Origin: an uncultured Candidatus Saccharibacteria bacterium
GTDB lineage: Bacteria; Patescibacteriota; Minisyncoccia; Phycocordibacterales; UBA5272
Direction: 5' to 3'
Assembly: GCA_964369115.1 (NCBI GenBank)
Contig: CAYJED010000001.1
Coordinates: 67,732-131,731 of the forward strand
DNA: 64,000 nucleotides
Shown here: piece by piece, positions 32,822 to 48,327 of the stretch
Layout of the letters: the number at the start of each line of letters is the position of its first letter
Position numbering within the stretch: the first letter of the stretch is position 1
Translations under genes and position numbers: made by a program
The notes under the pieces: model-generated
What the model was told of the DNA's origin: nothing
Database searches by the model: none
Seen by the model: the letters and a program-made list of their open reading frames with translations, nothing else

Positions 32822-32893
32822 TCCGCGATAGCTCAGCGGTAGAGCAGCGCGCTGTTAACGCGTTGGTCGTAGGTTCGATCCCTACTCGCGGAG
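32822..32893 (+). tRNA. tRNA-Asn (anticodon GTT)
   Basis: Cloverleaf read by hand: acceptor tccgcga/tcgcgga, D arm gctc-agcggta-gagc, anticodon stem gcgcg/cgcgt with loop ctGTTaa, T arm gtagg-ttcgatc-cctac, discriminator G. No encoded CCA. Confidence 0.85.
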
Positions 32894-32895
32894 CA
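32877..32895 (+). repeat. 19-nt tRNA 3'-end core (gatccctactcgcggagca), copy 1 of a direct repeat (att-like)
   Basis: Identical 19-mers recur at 46886-46904 and 48309-48327. Degenerate copies lie at 49547-49560 and about 46727-46745. Confidence 0.8.
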
Positions 32896-34570
32896 TAGTA
32901 GAAAAAACATCTCTTTTAAGGGATGTTTTTTCATTTAACCCTTGTGTATCAAAGTTTAATTTAGGTTCGAACTCTGGAAAATTCACTCTCATACCTTTTA
33001 CTCCATCAATGAGTGCTTGTGTTGCTTTTGACCAAGTAATACAAAGGTTTTCTTCGTCCCAAACTAGGTTCGAACCCAGTGCAAAAAGCACCTTCCTTTT
33101 GTGATCTAATGACCCATTTTTAAGCACTTCTGCAATTGATTCAGAGAAACCGACAATCTCGTTTAACTTAGACATCCAGTCAATATCATCTGCATTTTTC
33201 TTCTTTGAGACATGCTTGTAACGCTGTTCAATATCAGCAAGGTCGGCATTGTATTCGTCGTTAGTTATTTGTTGATTACGAAGCATTGCACGTGCGTGAA
33301 GTTTCTCTTCGTTGTACTTCTTTTTATCTTCTTCAATATTTATTTCTGCAGTAAGAGCATCCTGAAAATCACCATCTTTAAGTTGATATAAATTCGCCTT
33401 TGACCAATCAGCAAGATCAGAGGATATAGGAAAGTCAGAAATCGCAACAGAAATCAGTTCCTTAGTTATGTTTTTCTCAGTAATAGACTTATACGACTGA
33501 CGAGACTTCTTCTTACGATTGTCGTAGTGATATGAATACTCAAGAAGTTTAGGAGAAACCATTTGAGGTATATCAGTGCCACATGTAGGACAAATGGTAG
33601 ACAGAGTACAAGAAAACTTACGCTTACAGTCACATATGACCTGTAATTTAACGTCCTGAGCCAAAACATGTCCCAGTGGAGACCTTACGAGACCAGAATA
33701 CAGAGTCTTGTGATCCTGAACTTTAGGAAGCGAATGCTGACCAAGTAGACGTAGAATCTTCACATGTTCAGACTCGGTTATAATACGAGGTAGAGATTTG
33801 TGAAGTTCGTAACGCTCACCACCATAAAAGAAGAAACCTGCATAAATAGGATCCTTGAGAATCTCATAGATACGAGACCTCATGATAGGCATACCACCAC
33901 TTCTACCTCGTGCGACAGTAGTAAGGCCAAGTTCACCAACTGCGTAGTCGTACAACTTACCACCAGTAAAACCTCCTTCAAGAAACTTTCTTAATAAAAG
34001 ATTTATTTTATTCAAACGAACCTTATCAACCTTCCATTTACGATTACCTTTCTCTTCAGACTTATCATTAAGAAAACCAAGAGTAGCAACACCGTGAGGA
34101 AAACCCAAAGATGCTTTCTTAGTCTGACCTCTTTTAACATTCACAGAAAGATCACGAACGAATTGATTAGCAGAACCAAACTCAACCGACATCAAAATAG
34201 TGTTCTCACTACTGTGATAAATCTTGTTGGGAGTAATAATGCACTTAATGGTCCCACGCTGTAGCATGTCCATTATAACCCCACCATCAATCATGTTACG
34301 GGCCAAGCGATCAATTTTCCAACATACAATGCTGTCATATTTACCATTCTTAATATCTTTAATCATTTGAGTAAAAACAGGTCTCTTGTTGGACATCTTA
34401 CCTGACTTAGACTCTTTGAGGACATCAAGAATCTTAATACCAAACTGACTCGCTATCTTTTTATTTTCATCAACTTGAGAGTCGATAGATAACATTTGCC
34501 TTTCTTCTGACTCAGAAGACTTACGATTGTAATTCACTGCTTTCAACTCACCATAATTTATTTCATACAT
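32882..34570 (-). CDS. Large serine recombinase (integrase)
   Basis: N-terminal resolvase catalytic domain (AVNYNRKSSESEERQMLSIDSQ; WKIDRLARN), recombinase domain, Cys-rich zinc ribbon (CDCKRKFSC...CPTCG) and coiled coil. The last codons overlap the tRNA 3' end. Confidence 0.85.
   Translation of the reverse strand: MYEINYGELKAVNYNRKSSESEERQMLSIDSQVDENKKIASQFGIKILDVLKESKSGKMSNKRPVFTQMIKDIKNGKYDSIVCWKIDRLARNMIDGGVIMDMLQRGTIKCIITPNKIYHSSENTILMSVEFGSANQFVRDLSVNVKRGQTKKASLGFPHGVATLGFLNDKSEEKGNRKWKVDKVRLNKINLLLRKFLEGGFTGGKLYDYAVGELGLTTVARGRSGGMPIMRSRIYEILKDPIYAGFFFYGGERYELHKSLPRIITESEHVKILRLLGQHSLPKVQDHKTLYSGLVRSPLGHVLAQDVKLQVICDCKRKFSCTLSTICPTCGTDIPQMVSPKLLEYSYHYDNRKKKSRQSYKSITEKNITKELISVAISDFPISSDLADWSKANLYQLKDGDFQDALTAEINIEEDKKKYNEEKLHARAMLRNQQITNDEYNADLADIEQRYKHVSKKKNADDIDWMSKLNEIVGFSESIAEVLKNGSLDHKRKVLFALGSNLVWDEENLCITWSKATQALIDGVKGMRVNFPEFEPKLNFDTQGLNEKTSLKRDVFSTMLRE
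32902..32931 (+). terminator. Terminator hairpin downstream of the tRNA
   Basis: aaaaaacatc / gatgtttttt perfect 10-bp stem with a 10-nt loop. Confidence 0.45.
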
Positions 34571-36504: not shown

Positions 36505-36904
36505 TCCAATTGATGTGCTGAAAGTAGAGACTGATATAACAGTAAGAAACTCGGTGAAAACAGATTCAAAAAAATTGAATAGTAATTTCTGTACAGAAAT
36601 CGAGACCGTATAAACACGGATAAAACTCGGTGAAATTAATAGTGGCTCTAATTGATATACAGAAAGTGAGACCATCTAAACTTGGAATAAACTTGGTAAA
36701 AAATTACAGTAACCCAATTGATATAGTGAAAGTGAGCCCAGTTATAACAGGAGAAAACTCGGTGAAATACTGAAAGTTTAGATTGAAATAACAAATTAAA
36801 ACTCGACAAAAACAAATTCATAAATATAGTAGCCAGAATTTCAGTACTGAAATTGACACCGTTAGAATACGGTGAAAACTCGGTGAAAATTACTTCTGTG
36901 ATCC
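36505..36904. repeat. Non-coding tandem array of about 5 structured repeat units (64-144 nt)
   Basis: The constant 14-mer AAACTCGGTGAAA occurs at 36548, 36624, 36757 and 36876, with variants at 36690 and 36799. Each unit has an [A/T-rich palindromic arm]-GAAAG-TGAGNCC head, e.g. perfect palindromes tttctgtacagaaa (36585-36598) and aatttcagtactgaaatt (36838-36855). Each unit also has a short hairpin with compensatory stem changes (ccgt/acgg, caccgt/acggtg, actg/cagt, cca/tgg). No ORF. Confidence 0.8.
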
Positions 36905-37364: not shown

Positions 37365-37393
37365 TTGACAAAGTTAAAGTAAAGGTATATACT
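37365..37393 (+). promoter_or_regulatory. Putative sigma70-type promoter upstream of the fic gene
   Basis: TTGACA (37365-37370), 17-nt spacer, TATACT (37388-37393). Confidence 0.45.
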
Positions 37394-37422: not shown

Positions 37423-38586
37423 ATGAACTTCAAATCAGGTACAAAATATAAGGCAGAAACACCAAGCGGACAGAAATATACCGCCTTTTTACCTGAACTT
37501 ATAAATAAAGAATTCACTTGGAAAGATCCGCAGATAGACCTACTACTTGAACAGGCCCGAGGTTGGATTGGTGAACTTAATGCCTATTCTAAATTAGTCC
37601 CTAACGTTGAATATTTTATTCAATCTCACGTAGCAAAAGAAGCCGAACAATCTAGTAGAATTGAGGGCACTAAAACTACTCTCGAAGAACTGTACCTAGA
37701 TATTGCAGACCTTACAGACAGTGAAAAAGTAAATGACCAAGAAGAAGTTAAGAACTACATTAAAGCACTCAATGAATCTGTAAAAGAATTAACTAGTGAA
37801 AGTGGCCTACCTTTGTGTACGAGACTTGTATGTGACACACATAAAATACTTCTATCGGGTGTTCGTGGGTATTCTCGCAATCCAGGTAAAATAAGAAAAA
37901 TACAAAATAAGATCGGAGGCGGACACGGCACTTTTGAAGATGCCGTGTTTATTCCACCGTCACCAGATAAAGTAGACGACCTGCTAAAGGATCTAGAAAA
38001 CTTTTGGAATAACAATGACTTACATATACCAAACCTTATAAAGACTGCATTGTCACACTACCAGTTTGAAACCATTCACCCATTCGAAGATGGTAACGGT
38101 CGTACAGGTCGCTTGATAATCATTCTTCAACTTATCTCATATAAGATGCTCGAGAAACCAACTCTCTACCTATCAGACTATTTCGAAAAGAATCGTCCCG
38201 CATACTACGATGCCCTATCAAGGGTACGTGAGTCACACGACATAGAGCACTGGATTAAGTTTTTCTTGATCGGAGTGGCCGACACTGCAAAGAAAGGTAA
38301 AGAAACACTAGAGAAGATAATCGACTTACGAATTAAGTACGAAACACTTATTAGTGGAGGTATCGGAGCAAAGAGACAAAAACTTGCACGAGAACTCATT
38401 GTGGCCCTCTTCGAGAAACCAGTGGTAACCGCAAAAGATGTTGAAAGCATATTAAATATTACTAAACCAACTGCCCACTCCCTCGTCGATGATCTAGAGC
38501 GAGTCGGAATACTAAAAGAAAAAACAGGGTTGTCTCGTAACAGAATATTCACCCTACACGAGTACTTAGCATTATTTAATAACTAA
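37423..38586 (+). CDS. Fic/DOC family protein (putative AMPylating toxin) with N-terminal inhibitory motif
   Basis: Canonical Fic motif HPFEDGNGRTGR and an upstream SxxxEG-type inhibitory helix motif (SSRIEGT). The C-terminal part is HTH-like. Confidence 0.85.
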   Translation: MNFKSGTKYKAETPSGQKYTAFLPELINKEFTWKDPQIDLLLEQARGWIGELNAYSKLVPNVEYFIQSHVAKEAEQSSRIEGTKTTLEELYLDIADLTDSEKVNDQEEVKNYIKALNESVKELTSESGLPLCTRLVCDTHKILLSGVRGYSRNPGKIRKIQNKIGGGHGTFEDAVFIPPSPDKVDDLLKDLENFWNNNDLHIPNLIKTALSHYQFETIHPFEDGNGRTGRLIIILQLISYKMLEKPTLYLSDYFEKNRPAYYDALSRVRESHDIEHWIKFFLIGVADTAKKGKETLEKIIDLRIKYETLISGGIGAKRQKLARELIVALFEKPVVTAKDVESILNITKPTAHSLVDDLERVGILKEKTGLSRNRIFTLHEYLALFNN

Positions 38587-38592
38587 AAACAT

Positions 38593-40575
38593 ATGGAAAA
38601 CTTCAATCAAAAAACTTCAATGATCTGGAACGTAGCCGACATACTACGTGGTGGATGGAAACAACACGAATACCAAGATGTAATCTTGCCACTTGTGGTG
38701 CTTAAGAGACTGGACTCTATTCTTACAGATACCAAACAAGCAGTACTCAACAAAAACGATGAGTATCAAGGAAAAATCAATGATTTAGACCCAATCCTAA
38801 AACGTACTTCAAAAGTAGAGTTCTACAACATATCAGCATATGACTTCAAACTACTTCTTAGTGATCCAAAGAATATTGCAAAAAACTTCAGACTCTACAT
38901 AACTGGATTCAGTAAGAATATTCAAGATATATTCGAGAAATTCAACTTCAATGTGCAACTAGAAAGACTGGAGGGTGGTGACATGTTGTTCTTGGTAATT
39001 CAAGAGTTAAACAAGATAGACCTACACCCATCAAAAGTAGATAACTATCAAATGGGACACATCTTCGAAGAACTCCTTCGTAAGTTCTCTGAAATGTCTA
39101 ACGAGACCGCTGGAGAGCACTACACACCAAGAGATGTAATCAATACAATGGTTGAGATACTCTTGTCTCCAGATGCAAAGGAACTAAAAAAGCCACATGT
39201 TATCAAAAAAATATACGATCCTGCTTGTGGTACAGGTGGAATGCTTACAACTGCAAAAGATTACATTATCGACAAAGTAAACAAAGAAGCAGATATATTC
39301 CTGTACGGTCAAGAACTAAACTCAGTCACATACGCTATAGCAAAATCAGACATCCTTATAAAGGGTGAAAATCCAGACTTGATACGTGGAGGAGAAAAGG
39401 ATCACTCACTTGCAAGTACGCTTTCCAACGATCAATTCTTTGGAGAGGTATTTGACTATGGAATTTCAAATCCTCCATACGGAGTAGACTGGAAGAAAGA
39501 TAAAGATGCAGTAGATCGTGAAGCATCACGTGGATACGCAGGCAGATTCGGAGCAGGTACGCCTCGTATATCAGATGGTCAGTTGCTATTCATGGAGCAT
39601 CTTGTCTCAAAAATGAAACCAGAAAGTGATGGAGGTTCTCGTATTGCAGTAGTTCATAATGGGTCACCTCTCTTCACTGGTGATGCAGGTAGCGGAGAAA
39701 GTGAAATACGTAGATGGATACTTGAGAAAGATTTACTAGAAACAATAGTGGCACTCCCTGATCAACTTTTCTATAACACAGGTATCAATACATACCTTTG
39801 GTTCGTATCAAATAGAAAATCAAAAGAAAGAAAAGGTAAAGTACAACTCATAGATGCACGTAACTTCTACAAGAAGATGCGTAAGAGTCTCGGCAATAAA
39901 CGCCACGAGATAGATACAGATTCTCAAAAGAAAATATTTGATCTATACAATTCATTTGAAGAAAATGAGCATTCAAAGATATTCAATACTACCGACTTTG
40001 CATACCGACAAATACAAATTGAAAGACCTCTAAAACTTTCATTTGATTTCAACGATGAAAAAATAAAAGAACTGCTAGTGCTATTTTCTACAGATACAGA
40101 TAAATCAGGTATCAAGTCGTTCATAGAATCCTTCAAGGGAGAAACTTATAACGACAGAAAGAAACTTGAGGATATTATAACCAAGCGTTCAAAAGAGTTC
40201 ATCACTGGAAAACTTGGAGCGGGAGTAATAAAGAAGTTTATTTTACTCTCTGGGACCAAAGATGAGAATGCAGAAACCTGTGTGGACAAAGATGGTAACC
40301 CTGAAGCCGATGGTGACTTACGTGATCACGAGAATGTGCCCTACGGCACCGACGTGAAGGAATACTTCGACAAAGAAGTAAAACCTTATATTAGTGATGC
40401 ATGGATCAATGAATCGGTCCGAGACCACAAGGATAATCAGGTGGGTGTAGTTGGCTACGAAATACCCTTCACAAGATACTTCTATAAGTATGAAGCACCG
40501 AGAAGTCTTGAAGCAATAGAAAAAGATATTGAAGAGGTCGAAAATGAACTTCTAACCTTGCTTAAGCAATTATAA
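38593..40575 (+). CDS. hsdM: Type I restriction-modification system methyltransferase subunit
   Basis: HsdM N-terminal domain, SAM-binding region and NPPYG catalytic motif (ISNPPYGVDW). 660 aa with a C-terminal extension. Confidence 0.9.
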   Translation: MENFNQKTSMIWNVADILRGGWKQHEYQDVILPLVVLKRLDSILTDTKQAVLNKNDEYQGKINDLDPILKRTSKVEFYNISAYDFKLLLSDPKNIAKNFRLYITGFSKNIQDIFEKFNFNVQLERLEGGDMLFLVIQELNKIDLHPSKVDNYQMGHIFEELLRKFSEMSNETAGEHYTPRDVINTMVEILLSPDAKELKKPHVIKKIYDPACGTGGMLTTAKDYIIDKVNKEADIFLYGQELNSVTYAIAKSDILIKGENPDLIRGGEKDHSLASTLSNDQFFGEVFDYGISNPPYGVDWKKDKDAVDREASRGYAGRFGAGTPRISDGQLLFMEHLVSKMKPESDGGSRIAVVHNGSPLFTGDAGSGESEIRRWILEKDLLETIVALPDQLFYNTGINTYLWFVSNRKSKERKGKVQLIDARNFYKKMRKSLGNKRHEIDTDSQKKIFDLYNSFEENEHSKIFNTTDFAYRQIQIERPLKLSFDFNDEKIKELLVLFSTDTDKSGIKSFIESFKGETYNDRKKLEDIITKRSKEFITGKLGAGVIKKFILLSGTKDENAETCVDKDGNPEADGDLRDHENVPYGTDVKEYFDKEVKPYISDAWINESVRDHKDNQVGVVGYEIPFTRYFYKYEAPRSLEAIEKDIEEVENELLTLLKQL

Positions 40576-40579
40576 TTAT

Positions 40580-41782
40580 ATGAAAGAAGAAACAAAAAAT
40601 ATAATATGCCCTGAATGCGGAACATCAATATCAATCGATGATGCTTTAACGCACCAGATTGAAAACAAACTCAAGAAAGAATATGAGGACAAAGAAAAAT
40701 CAATAAGAGAATCTATTGAAAAAGAATCTTCAAAGAAACTTGAGCAAGATAAGGTAGAAATGGAAAAGAAATTAAAAGCACAGGTCCTAAAAGATACTGA
40801 GGCAGAAAAGGTAGCATCCAATGAAAAAAATAAACTCCTTGAAGAACAACTTGCTGATAAAGAGGCAAAACTAAAAGAAGCACGTCAGAATGAAGTTGCT
40901 CTCATAAAAGAGAAGCAGAAACTAAAGGATGATCAGGAGGCATTCGAATTAGAAAAGACACGCCAACTTGCAGAGGAAAGAAAGCAAATAGAAGAAGATG
41001 CTTCAAGGAAAGCCACTGATGCAAAGCAATCTGAAATCGATCAACTTAACAAGAAACTATCTGATGCTACAAAAGCAAAAGATGAATTAGCAAGAAAACT
41101 AGAACAAGGGTCACAGCAGACCCAAGGCGAGGTCCAAGAACTGGCCCTAGAAGAACTCCTTAAGGAGGCATTCATCTATGACGACGTATCTCCTGTTGGA
41201 AAAGGTGTTACTGGTGCAGACGTTATACAAACTGTCAAAACAAAGTCTGGTGTTGAATGCGGGAAAATAATCTGGGAATCAAAGAAAACTAAAACATGGA
41301 CCGAGGGATGGATACAGAAATTGAAAGATGACCAGAGACAGGTTAAAGCAGATCTTGCGGTTATTGTTACATCTGCTATGCCTCAAGGAACTAGTGGTAT
41401 CACCCAGAAAGATGGTGTATGGATTTGTGATATCAAATTGGCTCTATCAATAGCAACACTACTGAGACACTCACTTGAGACAGTAGCCAGAGAAAAGTCT
41501 ATGTCTGTAGGTAAGAATGAGAAAGTTGAAATCCTATACGCATACCTCACAGGCACAGAGTTCAAACAAAGAATCGAAGTGATAGTAGAGACATTTTCTA
41601 GTATGAAAACTTCTCTTGATAAAGAGAAACTTTACTTCACCAAAACTTGGGCAGAAAAAGAGAAACAAATAGATCGAGTTATACAAAATACTGTAGGCAT
41701 CTACGGTGATCTTAGCGGTGTCGTTCAATTGCAAAAAATTGAGTCACTTGAATTACCAAGCGGAGTAGATAAAGAAGAATAA
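40580..41782 (+). CDS. Zn-ribbon + long coiled-coil + C-terminal putative PD-(D/E)xK-like domain protein (DUF2130-like) embedded in the R-M operon
   Basis: CPECGTSI zinc ribbon, about 200 aa of K/E-rich coiled coil, and a C-terminal GADVIQTV...KIIWESKKTK segment compatible with D...ExK nuclease core motifs. Confidence 0.55.
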   Translation: MKEETKNIICPECGTSISIDDALTHQIENKLKKEYEDKEKSIRESIEKESSKKLEQDKVEMEKKLKAQVLKDTEAEKVASNEKNKLLEEQLADKEAKLKEARQNEVALIKEKQKLKDDQEAFELEKTRQLAEERKQIEEDASRKATDAKQSEIDQLNKKLSDATKAKDELARKLEQGSQQTQGEVQELALEELLKEAFIYDDVSPVGKGVTGADVIQTVKTKSGVECGKIIWESKKTKTWTEGWIQKLKDDQRQVKADLAVIVTSAMPQGTSGITQKDGVWICDIKLALSIATLLRHSLETVAREKSMSVGKNEKVEILYAYLTGTEFKQRIEVIVETFSSMKTSLDKEKLYFTKTWAEKEKQIDRVIQNTVGIYGDLSGVVQLQKIESLELPSGVDKEE

Positions 41783-41783
41783 T

Positions 41784-43070
41784 ATGCAAACACTCAAACT
41801 CACAAAAAAATATGAGACATACCCTGAATACAAAGATTCGGGTGTTGAGTGGTTGGGTATGATTCCGAAAGATTGGAAATACAAAAAACTAAAATCATTT
41901 TTCTCACTAAGTAATGAAAAAGTTGCTGAGAATCCAGAAATCACAACCATTCTTTCTGTCTCAGGTTACAGAGGTGTAGAAATTAGAAAAAATACTGAGA
42001 CTTTTGATGGACAAATGCCATCAGAAAATGTTGATGCATATAGAATTGTAAGAAAAAACCAACTAGTAGTTAATACTATGTGGCTTAACTTTACTGGACT
42101 GGGTGTATCAAATTATGAAGGGTACGTTAGTCCTGCATATAGGGCGTACAACATATCGAAAGAAATGCTCCCAGAATATGTAAATCATTTAATGAGATCT
42201 ACTGCTTATGTTCAAAAATATTCTAGTCTATTATACGGAATGCGACCAAATTCTCTTCAGGTGAAGCCGTATGATTTCGAAAAGATTGAAATATTGTATC
42301 CAGATATAAAAGAACAAAAACGTATTTCAATGTACCTTGATAAAAAAACTACTCTCATTGATCAGATAATAGAAAGAAAAGAAGCACTAATTGTTATCTT
42401 ACGGGAAAAAAGAAATGCTACGATAAGCAAGCAAATAGTTGAAAATACTGGAAAAGATTGGAAAGTTAAAAAAATTAAGCACCTAGTTAAATCAATTGAA
42501 TCTGGAATATGGGGAGACAATCCATTATCTAATAAAGATGACATTAAGTGTTTACGTATTGCTGATTTTGATTATGACAACTTCAGTTACTCTACAGTTG
42601 AAACAATAAGGAATAATTCAAACCTACAGGAAAGAAAGGTTCTCAGAAAAGGAGATATTCTTATGGAAAAATCTGGTGGCGGTGAAAAGACTCCAGTCGG
42701 TCGTGCGATATTGTTTTCCTCTGACGAAAGAATGGTTTGTGCAAACTTTATAGATAAAGTACGTGTTGATAAAGAAAAAATACTCCCAGAGTTCTTAGTC
42801 CTATACCTATCGGTGCTTTATGCAGGTAGAGTAAACACAAAATATATTAAACAAAACACTGGTATCCAGAATATGGATATTAAAGAATACTTTGGAGAGA
42901 ATATTTCCTACCCTGATATTAAAACCCAGAAAAATTTAACGGAATTTGTTAACGCTAAGATTAGTGCTTTTAACAAAGCAATTTCTGATGTAGAAAAAAC
43001 CATTGAAACATTAAAGGAGTTCAAGACTTCTCTTATTTCCAATGCAGTAACAGGAAAAATCAAAGTATAA
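41784..43070 (+). CDS. hsdS: Type I R-M specificity subunit
   Basis: Two target-recognition-domain halves separated and followed by conserved coiled-coil regions. 428 aa. Placed between hsdM and hsdR. Confidence 0.85.
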   Translation: MQTLKLTKKYETYPEYKDSGVEWLGMIPKDWKYKKLKSFFSLSNEKVAENPEITTILSVSGYRGVEIRKNTETFDGQMPSENVDAYRIVRKNQLVVNTMWLNFTGLGVSNYEGYVSPAYRAYNISKEMLPEYVNHLMRSTAYVQKYSSLLYGMRPNSLQVKPYDFEKIEILYPDIKEQKRISMYLDKKTTLIDQIIERKEALIVILREKRNATISKQIVENTGKDWKVKKIKHLVKSIESGIWGDNPLSNKDDIKCLRIADFDYDNFSYSTVETIRNNSNLQERKVLRKGDILMEKSGGGEKTPVGRAILFSSDERMVCANFIDKVRVDKEKILPEFLVLYLSVLYAGRVNTKYIKQNTGIQNMDIKEYFGENISYPDIKTQKNLTEFVNAKISAFNKAISDVEKTIETLKEFKTSLISNAVTGKIKV

Positions 43071-43074
43071 ATAT

Positions 43075-43707
43075 ATGGCAAAAATTGAGATAAACAAAAC
43101 ACACATAGACGCACTAAAGAAACAGAAAAGGACTGTGGGTCTTTTGCAATTTCAAAATAGAGACGATCAAAACTTTTCAAAATGGTATTCACTTACAGAA
43201 AACTTGATAATTAAATCTTTTGGACAAAAGTCTAATCAACTTGGGCAACTTACATCCCTATATCATAAAATGCCAAGAACCGAAGACTTAAAGTATGAAT
43301 TTGATAGAGGTAGATTGGATATAAAAGATTGTAAAGAAAAATTAAAAGACTTGCTTGAAAACTTAATAGCCGAACTGGAATTGGATCTTGCTTCTGAAAA
43401 TGAAGACACAAAAGATAAGCCAACCAAAAAAGGTACATCTATAAAGATCAAAAATAGTCAAACGCAAACGCAAACCATAAATATTACACTGACAATAGAT
43501 CAAATAATTAATAGAATTAAAGAAACAGAATCAGACCCACAAAGAGTCTCGGAAGCAGAAGTAAAATTAAAAGAATTAGATTCTGAATTAAAATCAAAAT
43601 CTCCAGTATGGTCGAAAGTAAAAGACGCTCTAATATGGTTACTGAATTTCGGAAGAGACACATTTTTACAGGTCTTACCCATTATCTTAGAAAGATACAA
43701 ACAGTAA
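43075..43707 (+). CDS. Hypothetical protein (210 aa) between hsdS and hsdR
   Basis: ORF with tight spacing to its neighbours (4-5 nt gaps). Predicted helical; no known motifs. Confidence 0.5.
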   Translation: MAKIEINKTHIDALKKQKRTVGLLQFQNRDDQNFSKWYSLTENLIIKSFGQKSNQLGQLTSLYHKMPRTEDLKYEFDRGRLDIKDCKEKLKDLLENLIAELELDLASENEDTKDKPTKKGTSIKIKNSQTQTQTINITLTIDQIINRIKETESDPQRVSEAEVKLKELDSELKSKSPVWSKVKDALIWLLNFGRDTFLQVLPIILERYKQ

Positions 43708-43708
43708 T

Positions 43709-46690
43709 ATGAAAACACTAACAAACACAAAAGAATCAGGATTCGAAGAGTTCATACAAAATGAACTTGAGAAGATGCATGGATACAAAATCCGCTCATC
43801 ACATCTCTATGACAAGAAACTCTGTATGGATACAGAACTTGTTATTGAGTTCATAGAAAAAACCCAACCTCAAGCATGGGAGAAACTTTCTGAACAGTAT
43901 GGAGAGAACGTAAAGGCAAAAGTTCTGCAGAGAATAGACGAGGAAGTAGACTCACGTGGGATACTCTCAGTATTTCGTGAGGGCATCACAGATAGAGGTG
44001 TGCGTTTCAAACTTGCATTCTTACAACCACAGAATGATTTGAATCCAGAACTAATGCAGGAATATGCTGGGAATATTTTGAGCGTGACTCGCCAAGTGAA
44101 GTACAGTGAGCAGAATGAGAACTCGCTCGACGTGGTCCTATTTATAAATGGATTACCAGTATTCACTCTCGAACTTAAGAATCAATTCACAGGTCAGAAT
44201 GTTATACACGCTATCCATCAATACAAAACAAGTCGAGACCAAAAGGAGAAACTTTTGTCGTTTAAGCGATGCATCACACACTTTGCAGTTGATACAGATC
44301 AAGTGTATATGACAACTCGTCTTACTGGACTCACTACGTACTTTTTACCTTTCAACAAAGGAGACAAAGGTTCATCTGGTAACCCGACAGCACCTGAGGG
44401 TAAATACAAAACTCATTACTTGTGGGAAGAGATTTTCTCAAAGGATATGGTGTTTGATTTGATTGGAAATTTCATACAAGATGTCACTGAAGAAAAAGTA
44501 GATAAGAATGGAAAGAAGCGAAAAGAAGAGAAACTTATCTTCCCTCGATATCATCAACTAGATACTGTGAACCGAATACTAACTCATGTAAAAGCAAATG
44601 GGACTGGTAATAACTACCTCATACAACACAGTGCAGGATCAGGGAAAAGTAATACTATCGCTTGGACCGCACACCGTTTGGCGGAATTACACGATCAAAG
44701 CAATAAACCGATTTTTGATGGGGTTATAGTGGTTACCGACCGAAGAGTGCTAGATAGCCAGTTGTCGGCCACTGTGGACAGTTTTAGCCAAGTTGGAGGG
44801 GTCGTAAAGCACGTAGAGAGTTCTGCTGACCTCAAAGGAGCACTTGAGGGTGGAGTTAAGATCATTACGAGTACTCTACAGAAATTCCCAGTTATCGTTA
44901 GTTCTATAGAAAAGACTGAGGGTAGAAAATTTGCTGTTATCGTTGATGAAGCACACTCGTCACAGTCAGGAGAAAGTTCAGCGGATTTGAGACAGGTGCT
45001 TACTCTTGATGATGCTGTAACGCAAGAAGAAAAAGAAGAGAAGTTATTTAAGACAGTCGAAGATCTTCTTAATGAAAGAATGAAATCAAGAAAGGTTACT
45101 TCACCGAACCTGAGTTTTTTTGCATTTACGGCTACACCAAAACAAAAGACAATTGAACTCTTTGGAACTCAAGATGTGGTTACAGGTAAATTCATCCCTT
45201 TTTCTCTTTATTCAATGAAACAAGCGATTGAAGAAAAGTTCATCTTAGATGTGCTTAAAAACTACACAACCTACGAAACATACTTCGGTCTCTTAAAGAA
45301 GATTGAAGATGACCCAGAGTTCAATAAGAAAAAGGCACAGAGACTACTAATTGGATATGTAGAAAGAAATGAACATGCGATCTTGAAAAAGGTAGCAATC
45401 ATGACTGAGCATTTCGAACAGAAGATCTCAAAACTAATTGGAGGTAAAGCCAAGGCAATGATAGTAACTAAATCACGTTTACATGCCGTGAGATATAAAC
45501 TTGCCTTCGATGCTTACTTAAAGGAAAAAGGTTATGAGCATAAATCCCTTGTTGCTTTCTCTGGTAGTGTTGTTGATCCTGATACAAAACTTGAATATAC
45601 AGAAACTCAAATGAATCATATTCCAGAAAGCCAAACTGCTGAAGAATTCAAGAAAGATGAGTACAAATTCTTAATTGTTGCAGAGAAGTTTCAGACTGGA
45701 TTTGATCAACCGTTACTATCTGCAATGTATGTAGATAAGAAATTAGGAGGCGTAAATGCTGTGCAGACTCTTTCTCGTTTGAACCGCACAACATACGGAA
45801 AAGAAGATACTTTTGTACTAGACTTCTTTAACAAGACAGACGATATCAAGGAAGCATTCCAACCGTACTATACTACTACCGTACTTTCTGAAGCGACAAA
45901 TCCTAACTTATTACATAACCTCGAAAGAGAAGTTCGTGGGTTCAAGTTGTTTACCGACTTTGAGTTGAATGGATTTGTGGAAGAACTCTTTGGAGGTGCA
46001 ACCCCAGACAAACTAAATCACATAATAGATGTGATAGTTGAAAGAGCATTATCCGAAAAAGATGCGGAAGAAATTGAAAGTTTCAAGTCAGTAATTTATG
46101 ACTACTTGAAGAAGTATTCATTTATCTCACAGATCGTAACCTTTGAGGACCCTCAACTAGAGAAGTTGTATATATTCCTAAAGTTCTTGATAAAGAAACT
46201 TCCAAGACGAGAAAACCCTCTGCCAGTAGAGGTCCTTGAGGCAATTGATATGGAAACATACAAGATAGATAAAAAAGGAGAAACTGATGTGATGCTTGAA
46301 AATAAAGATGGAGAACTAGACCCTATGACTGGTGGAGGTGGTAAAAAAACTGGAGGAGATGAAGAGGAAGATGCATTATCTAAGATAATTAAGGAGATAA
46401 ATGAACGATACGGAACAAACTTTAGCGATAATGACAAAGTTATACTTAATGACCTAAGTGCAAAACTACTAAAGAGTACAATTCTTCAAGGTTCAATACA
46501 AAACAACAGTAAGGATTCTGCGAAGTTGAAGTTCGATCAACTCTTCCAAGACGAACTAGTTGGGATGCTTGATAACCACTTTAACCTCTACCAGAAACTG
46601 GACCAAAGCCCAGAATTAAAGAAATTCGTACAGGAGAAAGTCTTTGAACATGTGGTAAAGAAGATGAACACCAATAAAACAAAGGATTAA
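43709..46690 (+). CDS. hsdR: Type I restriction enzyme R subunit
   Basis: N-terminal nuclease domain, SF2 helicase motifs (HSAGSGKSNT Walker A; VIVDEAHSSQ DEAH box), C-terminal domain. 993 aa. Confidence 0.9.
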   Translation: MKTLTNTKESGFEEFIQNELEKMHGYKIRSSHLYDKKLCMDTELVIEFIEKTQPQAWEKLSEQYGENVKAKVLQRIDEEVDSRGILSVFREGITDRGVRFKLAFLQPQNDLNPELMQEYAGNILSVTRQVKYSEQNENSLDVVLFINGLPVFTLELKNQFTGQNVIHAIHQYKTSRDQKEKLLSFKRCITHFAVDTDQVYMTTRLTGLTTYFLPFNKGDKGSSGNPTAPEGKYKTHYLWEEIFSKDMVFDLIGNFIQDVTEEKVDKNGKKRKEEKLIFPRYHQLDTVNRILTHVKANGTGNNYLIQHSAGSGKSNTIAWTAHRLAELHDQSNKPIFDGVIVVTDRRVLDSQLSATVDSFSQVGGVVKHVESSADLKGALEGGVKIITSTLQKFPVIVSSIEKTEGRKFAVIVDEAHSSQSGESSADLRQVLTLDDAVTQEEKEEKLFKTVEDLLNERMKSRKVTSPNLSFFAFTATPKQKTIELFGTQDVVTGKFIPFSLYSMKQAIEEKFILDVLKNYTTYETYFGLLKKIEDDPEFNKKKAQRLLIGYVERNEHAILKKVAIMTEHFEQKISKLIGGKAKAMIVTKSRLHAVRYKLAFDAYLKEKGYEHKSLVAFSGSVVDPDTKLEYTETQMNHIPESQTAEEFKKDEYKFLIVAEKFQTGFDQPLLSAMYVDKKLGGVNAVQTLSRLNRTTYGKEDTFVLDFFNKTDDIKEAFQPYYTTTVLSEATNPNLLHNLEREVRGFKLFTDFELNGFVEELFGGATPDKLNHIIDVIVERALSEKDAEEIESFKSVIYDYLKKYSFISQIVTFEDPQLEKLYIFLKFLIKKLPRRENPLPVEVLEAIDMETYKIDKKGETDVMLENKDGELDPMTGGGGKKTGGDEEEDALSKIIKEINERYGTNFSDNDKVILNDLSAKLLKSTILQGSIQNNSKDSAKLKFDQLFQDELVGMLDNHFNLYQKLDQSPELKKFVQEKVFEHVVKKMNTNKTKD

Positions 46691-46808: not shown

Positions 46809-46904
46809 TGCGTCACTTGCGTGTAGGGTCGAATAGGGCTCGCGAATCTGCTTCGAGGAGTTTACGACGAGGCAGATTTGTGAGAGATCCCTACTCGCGG
46901 AGCA
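46809..46904 (+). repeat. Structured arm plus 19-nt tRNA-3' core, copy A (att-like junction)
   Basis: gcaagtgac-ctgc-gtcacttgc hairpin, then aatctgcttcg...cgaggcagatt hairpin, ending in gatccctactcgcggagca (46886-46904). Confidence 0.7.
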
Positions 46905-46908
46905 AAGG

Positions 46909-46937
46909 TTGACAATAACCAAATTATAATGTATAAT
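46909..46937 (+). promoter_or_regulatory. Consensus sigma70-type promoter
   Basis: TTGACA (46909-46914), 17 nt, TATAAT (46932-46937). Confidence 0.5.
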
Positions 46938-48219: not shown

Positions 48220-48327
48220 AACGAAGCAAGTGACCTACTTCACTTGCATGTAAGATCGAATACGGGGTCGAGGTTCTACTTCGAGCAAAGCGAGGTAGAA
48301 TCGTGACCGATCCCTACTCGCGGAGCA
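48220..48327 (+). repeat. Structured arm plus 19-nt tRNA-3' core, copy B
   Basis: gcaagtga-cctact-tcacttgc hairpin, ctacttcg...cgaggtag hairpin, ggggtcg...cgatccc pairing, ending in gatccctactcgcggagca (48309-48327). Confidence 0.7.

Follow-up and report, generated by a model that had tools for sequence, protein, structure and literature searches.

Why does a type I restriction–modification (R-M) operon carry a gene for a 400-residue DUF2130-family protein between hsdM and hsdS? The question is raised by a 64,000-nucleotide (nt) stretch of contig CAYJED010000001.1 (positions 67,732 to 131,731 of the forward strand) from an uncultured Candidatus Saccharibacteria bacterium, assembly GCA_964369115.1. 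We call this whole stretch the window and count positions within it. An earlier note, made from the letters alone, had described the protein as a Zn ribbon, a heptad-like coiled coil, and a C-terminal region with a D...ExK nuclease signature, and had considered it a plausible effector inside an R-M operon. Our structural modeling indicates that the C-terminal half is a PD-(D/E)xK nuclease domain that looks catalytically complete. The window copy belongs to a clade of Candidate Phyla Radiation (CPR)/Patescibacteria proteins mostly embedded in type I R-M operons. The reading that we favor, tentatively and at a little less than an even chance, is that the protein would be an accessory defense nuclease coupled to the HsdM2S core of the type I R-M system.

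The gene starts with ATG and runs for 400 codons to its stop (Table 1). An in-frame TAA at 40574-40576, in the stop region of hsdM, blocks upstream extension of the open reading frame (ORF), and thus the N-terminus of the 400-residue protein is fixed. The strings on which the earlier description was built are all present in the sequence: IICPECGTSI at residues 8-17, GADVIQTV at residues 212-219, and KIIWESKKTK at residues 229-238, with D214 and E233 spaced 19 residues apart. The likeness to DUF2130-type proteins also holds, as the Pfam model DUF2130 (PF09903) matched residues 150-392 with E=9.8e-63 and 212.2 bits against a gathering cut-off of 26.7. The window protein is a direct member of this family (COG4487) and shows no difference in kind from it; the family-wide elements, namely the N-terminal CxxC, the long helical rod, the QGSQQxQGE motif, and the GxD...ExK nuclease core, are complete. 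When 1.84 billion cluster representatives were searched with HMMER, the family comprised 4,376 clusters (50% identity) at E<=1e-3, and 1,472 passed E<=1e-30. The PD-(D/E)XK assignment of DUF2130 is not new; in the 2012 superfamily survey by Steczkiewicz et al. (PMC3424549), DUF2130/COG4487 is PD-(D/E)XK family 109, with its function given as “Unknown”.

Conservation supports a catalytic role for the C-terminal half. Alignment A1 comprises 92 sequences, namely the window protein and 91 representatives (33-69% identity). In A1, the residues C10, C13, S178, G183, D201, G209, G212, D214, E233, K235, W244, P268, and F328 are invariant, and Q176, G177, Q180, Q182, E184, E187, and E191 are conserved in at least 90%. 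The three glutamates E184, E187, and E191 lie on one helix that runs on from the QGSQQTQGE motif. Conserved positions of the C-terminal helical region are L295, R296, K315, Y322, F328, L346, E349, and W357. A regular-expression check found the GxD...ExK pattern in 267 of the 269 DUF2130 proteins fetched. The D...ExK signature proposed earlier is thus borne out, with its D, E, and K residues conserved throughout the 92 homologs, and the features of the protein are far beyond chance.

The AlphaFold2 model computed on A1 has a mean predicted local distance difference test score (pLDDT) of 85, with values of 92-98 at residues 190-300. Its core consists of a helix that ends at residue 197, strands at 202-205, 215-220, and 226-235, a helix at 243-255, and a strand at 259-264. 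This modeled alpha-beta-beta-beta-alpha-beta order corresponds to the PD-(D/E)xK topology, in which D214 would open beta-2 and E233-x-K235 would lie within beta-3. In a Foldseek search against the PDB, PD-(D/E)xK nucleases headed the list and all informative matches fell in this superfamily. The neighbors included SPARDA DREN 9qcc (probability 0.97), Hjc 2eo0, and Bax1 6p4w (probability 0.99), and further MspJI, BstEII, Ecl18kI, EcoT38I, McrC, the DdmD nuclease domain, and Cas4; the top five had probabilities of 0.95-0.99, and identity to the neighbors was 9-21%. A structural search of BFVD gave eight matches at E<=1e-3, and the named ones were restriction endonuclease, Mrr-like, PD-(D/E)XK, or Holliday-junction resolvase proteins. 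Topology and structural neighbors therefore agree with the fold that the earlier note had proposed to check, and a non-nuclease fold was not seen with AlphaFold2 or Foldseek. D214, E233-x-K235, the acidic E184/E187/E191 of the preceding helix, and D201 form the candidate catalytic set. We infer that the protein is an active metal-dependent nuclease, and its substrate is most likely DNA.

Two of the BFVD matches, A0A1C9C4X3 of Heterosigma akashiwo virus 01 (E=7e-9) and A0A5J6VIU6 of a Megaviridae member (E=5e-7), covered the whole model over 280-415 columns. This suggests that the rod-plus-nuclease architecture, as modeled, also occurs in eukaryotic giant viruses.

The N-terminal element proved to be smaller than the Zn ribbon described earlier. 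Its rubredoxin-type CPxCG knuckle is well conserved, with C10 and C13 invariant and P11 present in 86 of the 92 A1 sequences, but a second ligand pair was not found: no further Cys/His pair is conserved in A1, and H25 occurs in 24 of the 92 sequences. We therefore reject a four-ligand Zn ribbon, since C10 and C13 alone are conserved and the ORF is not extendable upstream. One chain gives two ligands, not four, and thus we use the term knuckle rather than ribbon. All Pfam zinc-ribbon matches for the 400-residue protein were below threshold, and AlphaFold2 placed a short beta-hairpin with low pLDDT at this site. The CxxC lies inside the first 60 residues in 143 of 150 representatives; most of the others start inside the rod or beyond it and are apparently truncated at the N-terminus. 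Among the 269 family proteins, 262 have an N-terminal CxxC. A Zn(Cys)4 site would most simply be completed between chains, as is the case in the Rad50 hook and presumably with the RloC CxxC (PMC2610378, PMC3458546).

Between the knuckle and the nuclease core, AlphaFold2 predicts one unbroken helix over residues 24-197, a rod of approximately 170 residues. Over residues 25-175, the composition is 26% D/E and 25% K/R (52% charged) with 19% large hydrophobic residues and no Gly or Pro, and the rod has 31 opposite-charge i,i+4 pairs against 19.6+-3.5 in shuffles. The earlier description of residues about 25-200 as a heptad-like coiled coil stands with regard to the K/E-rich long helix, but not with regard to its periodicity. 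In the single sequence, the power near the heptad period of 3.5 was 0.33, below the 0.70 that marks the 95% level of shuffles. The family-averaged hydrophobic seam over residues 23-175 has a period of 3.65-3.8, and 1 of 500 shuffles reached the observed power.

The length of the rod provides further information. The distance from CxxC to GxD varies between 129 and 481 residues across 141 representatives and is quantized at 3.63 residues, with a Rayleigh R of 0.74 for all sequences, a value inflated by their kinship, and of 0.54 for the 64 distinct lengths, for which kinship is partly controlled. The maxima in 300 jittered controls were 0.27 and 0.41, respectively. Distinct lengths gave no signal at 3.5 or 7, and a stricter-anchor version of the test had the same outcome. 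A canonical heptad coiled coil is thus unsupported by single-sequence power, family profile, and rod-length quantization. The rod is variable in length yet phase-locked, which implies an uninterrupted seam or a constant azimuth of one end relative to the other; it fits a near-straight non-canonical coiled coil (a heptad/hendecad mix) or a single alpha-helix with a fixed azimuth. In either case, the two ends, knuckle and nuclease, seem to act in concert, and the quantization at 3.63 is a structural constraint that gives a hint of the way in which they do so.

The surrounding operon comprises six co-oriented genes at 37423-46690 in the order SoFic-HsdM-DUF2130-HsdS-orf210-HsdR, with gaps of 6, 4, 1, 4, and 1 nt. 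The location inside an R-M operon is thereby confirmed, as the DUF2130 gene lies between the end of hsdM at 40575 and the start of hsdS at 41784. A promoter-like site precedes the operon, and the + strand has no terminator-like site ahead of 47287. As judged from its sequence, the type I R-M operon looks intact. HsdR has kept its own nuclease motif, D141...E155-L-K157 with a following QY, which aligned HsdR relatives share, so DUF2130 is not a substitute for a lost restriction nuclease; HsdM likewise keeps its NPPY, and we rejected the idea of a stand-in for a degenerate HsdR nuclease.

The same operon bears on whether the DUF2130 protein is catalytic. Some PD-(D/E)xK domains are non-catalytic, and a structural or regulatory protein could use the fold for binding only, for example as a scaffold or assembly factor of the type I complex, a role that a long rod with a knuckle could suit. 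However, HsdR, HsdM, and HsdS look complete without DUF2130, and the catalytic residues are invariant in the 92 homologs, with the pattern kept in 267 of 269 proteins. We consider a non-catalytic role very improbable.

The relatives of the window protein provide the principal argument for coupling. The identical protein was found on three other metagenome contigs, each with the same operon, and the nearest relatives are in CPR/Patescibacteria genomes (Saccharibacteria, Paceibacterota, Yonathbacteria, and Moranbacteria). Among the 17 close-relative contexts at >=65% identity, window included, hsdM followed by DUF2130, with 0 or 1 gene between, stands ahead of hsdS in 11 (the window, L001, L003, L004, L005, L007, L009, L010, L012, L084, and L085). 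The HsdM partners fall into two families, with 71-74% versus 24-28% identity to the window HsdM, while DUF2130 stays at 66-91%. Two HsdM families with a conserved DUF2130 suggest that the gene moved between unrelated type I scaffolds into the same slot.

That the slot is the same in 11 of the 17 contexts, across two type I families, is the main argument for coupling to R-M. Coupling is also drawn from the 4- and 1-nt junctions, the single promoter-like site, and the lack of an internal terminator, and from a Bacteroidota plasmid, of Chryseobacterium, in which a WYL-DUF2130-HsdM-HsdS cluster links DUF2130 to hsdM-hsdS. In the mechanism that we propose, two or more chains would associate in parallel along their rods, and a pair of two-Cys knuckles, one from each of two chains, would together make up one Zn(Cys)4 site in a hook- or clasp-like manner. 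The nuclease heads would thereby be held in fixed register. We propose the oligomer and the clasp because there is one conserved CxxC only and the rod length stays in phase at 3.63. DUF2130 would be co-expressed with the HsdM2S core and functionally coupled to it as a second-line effector. The methyltransferase complex may keep it quiet, by analogy with PrrC/EcoprrI and Ronin RonA/HsdMS; once restriction is blocked or overwhelmed, DUF2130 would be released or activated and would cut phage and/or host DNA.

In Ronin, the toxin RonA is neutralized by HsdMS and triggered by Ocr/ArdA, and EcoprrI silences PrrC until the T4 Stp peptide releases it (bioRxiv 10.1101/2023.04.06.535777). In both systems, an effector gene lies in or beside hsdM-hsdS (PMC2610378), as does the co-oriented DUF2130 gene of the window. 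The effectors themselves differ: PrrC is an ABC-ATPase with an anticodon RNase and RonA a 61-residue membrane peptide, whereas the window protein is a predicted PD-(D/E)xK nuclease on a rod. Pfam found no AAA_13 or other ATPase domain in it, and the lack of an ATPase domain rules out identity with the PrrC/RloC anticodon nucleases. RloC resembles the window protein in combining a CxxC and a long helical region in a defense-associated nuclease that is sometimes R-M-linked (PMC2610378, PMC3458546). In RloC, however, a Rad50-like ATPase carries an inserted antiparallel coiled coil with the CxxC at its apex, while that of the window protein is at the extreme N-terminus of a single helix, and RloC/PrrC-type AAA_13 proteins are separate neighbors of DUF2130 (L016, L031, L033, and L046), not fused to it.

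Several results weigh against the coupled nuclease. A DUF2130 protein 80% identical to that of the window adjoins an HsdM only 24% identical, a pairing that makes a specific, co-evolved contact with HsdM less likely. Six of the 17 close relatives lie outside R-M operons: L002 adjoins GmrSD-HNH and an NYN RNase, L087 adjoins an AAA_15 ATPase and an Eco47II-type R-M system, and L006, L008, L011, and L086 have non-defense surroundings. Among 79 species-level genome loci of more distant members, 67 have no HsdM, HsdS, HsdR, or Fic within 8 kb, and a fixed housekeeping synteny, OsmC-like gene-DUF2130-GH97 glycosidase gene, recurs in 12-13 Pedobacter loci. Coupling is thus weakened by a DUF2130 that is much better conserved than HsdM and lives without R-M elsewhere. 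On the side of the protein itself, the Foldseek E-values against the PDB were weak (best 5e-3) and the N-terminal 80 residues of the model had a pLDDT of 45-70. The 400-residue protein matched nothing in NCBIfam or PHROGs and 0 PADLOC 2.0 families at E<=0.01, and full-text literature searches found no functional study of DUF2130, COG4487, or PF09903. Sequence searches of the PDB with the protein and its profile gave only zinc-finger or coiled-coil noise. The effector role suggested by the earlier note thus finds support in the recurrent hsdM-hsdS slot of the relatives, but it is weakened by the location of most of the distant members outside R-M operons.

A second cargo slot in these operons, between hsdS and hsdR, is hypervariable. 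It is occupied by orf210 in the window and by unrelated proteins of 357, 401+146, 413, and 326 residues elsewhere, as well as by a DUF3800 protein and, in L084, by a Thoeris-like ThsB-TIR and ThsA-Macro pair. orf210 had no match in Pfam, NCBIfam, or PHROG. We rejected orf210 as an obligate partner of DUF2130, since it is not present in any related locus and the proteins of this slot are mutually unrelated. A slot with such unrelated cargo shows that these operons collect passengers, and DUF2130 may be another: an autonomous hitch-hiker, that is, a self-contained defense or selfish nuclease that uses the R-M operon for expression and co-mobilization alone and is uncoupled to HsdM/HsdS. It would act like the Shield effector ShdA, as a constitutively restrained DNase triggered by infection cues. 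The much higher conservation of DUF2130 compared with its HsdM partners agrees with this, as do the members at 33-45% identity that stand alone or beside OLD/Gabija-like, AAA_13, type II R-M, GmrSD-HNH, and NYN genes. In contrast, one passenger kept in one slot is unexpected from random hitch-hiking; the DUF2130 slot is fixed in 11 of 17 contexts and two type I families while the other slot is hypervariable, and the 1-4 nt junctions suggest translational coupling. We regard an uncoupled passenger as unlikely, although it deserves serious consideration. If it were a true passenger nuclease, the finding would be ordinary, since type I loci are well known to harbor accessory genes.

As an observation on the downstream genes, L002 (9157-10342) and L005 (9215-10374) have in common a module of a protein of about 90-98 residues followed by an NYN-domain protein of about 293 residues, one copy being inside and the other outside a type I operon.

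The distant members of the family, at 33-45% identity and mostly from Bacteroidota, have other surroundings. The 102 immediate neighbors from 57 non-redundant loci included AAA_21 (7), AAA_13 (PADLOC candidate PDC-S06; 4), Methylase_S (4), N6_Mtase (3), AAA_15/OLD-TOPRIM (3), WYL (3), integrase (3), UvrD-PDDEXK_1 (2), Schlafen AlbA_2 (2), and one GmrSD-HNH. The defense genes among them speak for a defense role. DUF2130 is carried by 45 annotated plasmid records.

These contexts also bear on a third reading, in which DUF2130 would be a housekeeping DNA repair or recombination factor, RmuC-like, that processes DNA ends or recombination intermediates; within R-M operons, it would deal with restriction-made breaks or limit self-restriction damage. 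The non-defense synteny kept in Pedobacter is consistent with such a factor, and repair genes are among the neighbors: MutL (L022), a UvrD-helicase-PDDEXK_1 fusion overlapping the gene end (L014 and L015), LexA (L086), and RecX (L087). The modeled core resembles the Holliday-junction resolvase Hjc, and the architecture is RmuC-like, with hhalign pairing the RmuC motif KGDNKTQGNWGE with EQGSQQTQGEVQE of DUF2130. This link to RmuC is non-significant, however. There was no Pfam RmuC match even at E<=10, the hhalign probability was 0.28, and a hidden Markov model (HMM) compared with 120 RmuC sequences gave a best E of approximately 0.005 with high compositional bias, the set being of low diversity (all homologs collected at >=84% identity) and its profile shallow. 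RmuC membership found no support in Pfam, hhalign, or HMM, although with so shallow an RmuC profile a remote homology may have been missed. Furthermore, the family is patchy and occurs on mobile islands and the 45 plasmids, unlike core repair genes, and many of its neighbors are defense genes. A repair function therefore seems rather improbable to us.

Two further comparisons place the architecture. ShdA is an RmuC-domain DNase, an anchored protein of restriction fold, and protects alone against phage (PMC10270631). RmuC (PF02646) and ShdA combine an N-terminal anchor or rod with a C-terminal restriction-endonuclease-like nuclease, as the window protein appears to do; ShdA is membrane-anchored, whereas DUF2130 has the Zn knuckle in that place. 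The minimal nucleases of Hjc/Mrr/DREN type are the best structural neighbors of the window core, but they are without the rod, the knuckle, the QGSQQxQGE motif, and the C-terminal helical region of approximately 100 residues.

The DUF2130 family is a tangible candidate for a new nuclease module directed against phages or plasmids because of its invariant catalytic residues, its slot-locked clade, and its Gabija-like, AAA_13, and R-M neighbors. A bolder proposal, which we offer as speculation that is probably wrong in at least some part, is that DUF2130 would represent a new and widespread class of rod-shaped defense nucleases with an N-terminal inter-chain Zn(Cys)4 clasp, in which the phase-locked rod would serve as a spacer or ruler for the cut site of the paired heads relative to a partner. 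In CPR, the protein would be a quasi-integral fourth type I subunit or a guarded back-up that docks on HsdM2S and fires when anti-restriction proteins disable the HsdM2S core. Compared with the literature searched, the CPR type I slot association, the defense-rich wider neighborhoods, and the 3.63-residue quantization of the rod may be new.

Table 1. Coordinates of the features discussed, in the window or in related loci
Feature	Locus	Position	Strand	Evidence
DUF2130-family gene (400 residues)	window	40580-41782	+	ORF; Pfam PF09903; same protein on 3 further metagenome contigs
Zinc knuckle IICPECGTSI, residues 8-17	window	40601-40630	+	C10 and C13 invariant
C10	window	40607-40609	+	knuckle cysteine
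C13	window	40616-40618	+	knuckle cysteine
Long charged helical rod, residues 24-197	window	40649-41170	+	AlphaFold2 single helix
QGSQQTQGE motif, residues 176-184, rod-nuclease junction	window	41105-41131	+	family conservation
Predicted PD-(D/E)xK nuclease core, residues 198-284	window	41171-41431	+	invariant residues, AlphaFold2 strands, Foldseek neighbors
D201	window	41180-41182	+	invariant residue, nuclease core
D214	window	41219-41221	+	invariant residue, nuclease core
E233	window	41276-41278	+	invariant residue, nuclease core
K235	window	41282-41284	+	invariant residue, nuclease core
C-terminal helical region, residues 285-381 (helices 285-309, 314-324, 326-381)	window	41432-41722	+	AlphaFold2 model; Pfam DUF2130 model reaches 392
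Promoter-like site TTGACA-17-TATACT, upstream of operon	window	37365-37393	+	11/12 consensus match
SoFic-like Fic gene, first in operon	window	37423-38586	+	Pfam Fic_N, Fic; PADLOC SoFic E=1.9e-114
hsdM, ends 4 nt ahead of DUF2130 gene	window	38593-40575	+	Pfam HsdM_N, N6_Mtase; PADLOC MTase_I E=1.7e-258; NPPY at residue 293
hsdS, starts 1 nt past DUF2130 stop	window	41784-43070	+	Pfam Methylase_S; PADLOC Specificity_I E=2.3e-70
orf210 (210 residues), hsdS-hsdR slot	window	43075-43707	+	weak PADLOC PDC-S35 match E=7.5e-7
hsdR	window	43709-46690	+	Pfam HSDR_N, SWI2_SNF2, ResIII
tRNA-Asn(GTT), island integration site	window	32822-32894	+	ARAGORN
Left att repeat, 19 nt, GATCCCTACTCGCGGAGCA, 3' end of tRNA	window	32877-32895	.	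exact copy
Right att repeat	window	46886-46904	.	exact copy; bounds ~14-kb island with whole operon
Third att repeat copy	window	48309-48327	.	exact copy
Serine recombinase adjoining tRNA	window	32882-34570	-	Pfam Resolvase E=2.7e-18
hsdS-hsdR slot	L084	10364-11751
hsdS-hsdR slot	L010	10323-11048
hsdS-hsdR slot	L004	10452-11525
hsdS-hsdR slot	L012	2516-4158
hsdS-hsdR slot	L085	10496-11737
AAA_13 neighbor	L016	9398-11605
AAA_13 neighbor	L031	2064-4385
AAA_13 neighbor	L033	5789-7963
AAA_13 neighbor	L046	1448-3622

Some individual neighborhoods of the wider family are of interest in their own right. An Aliarcobacter plasmid carries the string DUF2130, OLD endonuclease, UvrD helicase, and methyltransferase, and its Gabija-like OLD and UvrD pair begins 2 nt past the DUF2130 stop. 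An OLD-family ATP-dependent endonuclease (AAA_15 + TOPRIM) adjoins DUF2130 in L088 (5986-11192), L025 (9264-11030), L028 (736-2712), and L041 (3561-5537). In four Bacteroidota loci, the gene adjoins large AAA_13 proteins with a PrrC/RloC-type ATPase domain (PDC-S06, E down to 4e-274; Table 1), and L033 has a 1,044-residue HsdM-like fusion further upstream. On the conjugative Mesorhizobium plasmid pMLa (L089, 268052-269347), DUF2130 lies near a relaxase, ParA, DUF736, and a zincin-like metallopeptidase gene that we take as ArdC-like. DUF2130 genes are common on rhizobial plasmids and occur on 31 of Bradyrhizobium, which hints at a role of rhizobial DUF2130 in plasmid establishment or anti-defense. 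The only matches in the phage collection were seven Helicobacter heilmannii entries (BK070121-BK070128), which aligned with residues 158-380 alone at 36.8-37.2% identity. The knuckle and most of the rod were unmatched, and these phage versions may be rod-less or highly divergent.

At the head of the window operon, the single-gene defense system SoFic is joined to the R-M genes, and the Fic-hsdM order is also present in L001, L004, and L085. Ahead of the Fic gene and the promoter-like site, five imperfect 52-nt direct repeats lie in a non-coding gap at 36508-36888. They have 62-81% identity to a reference copy, are 66-121 nt apart, and each ends in AAACT[CT]GGT[GA]AAA. An Rfam scan of the array gave nothing credible; the repeats may be iterons, an operator array, or a small-RNA array.

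The whole operon is part of an island of approximately 14 kb, bounded by the att repeats, that is integrated at tRNA-Asn and also holds a serine recombinase, which is likely the island integrase. The genes flanking the island are housekeeping genes, and the operon of L085 likewise neighbors a large serine recombinase. An extra segment of approximately 1.4 kb past the right att repeat, reaching to the copy at 48309, resembles a tandem remnant. Directly past the right att repeat, at 46909-46937, there is a perfect sigma-70 consensus, TTGACA-17-TATAAT, which faces this remnant. Segments are repeated at 46788-46838/48215-48265 and at 48254-48308/49491-49545, which suggests serial integrations at tRNA-Asn.

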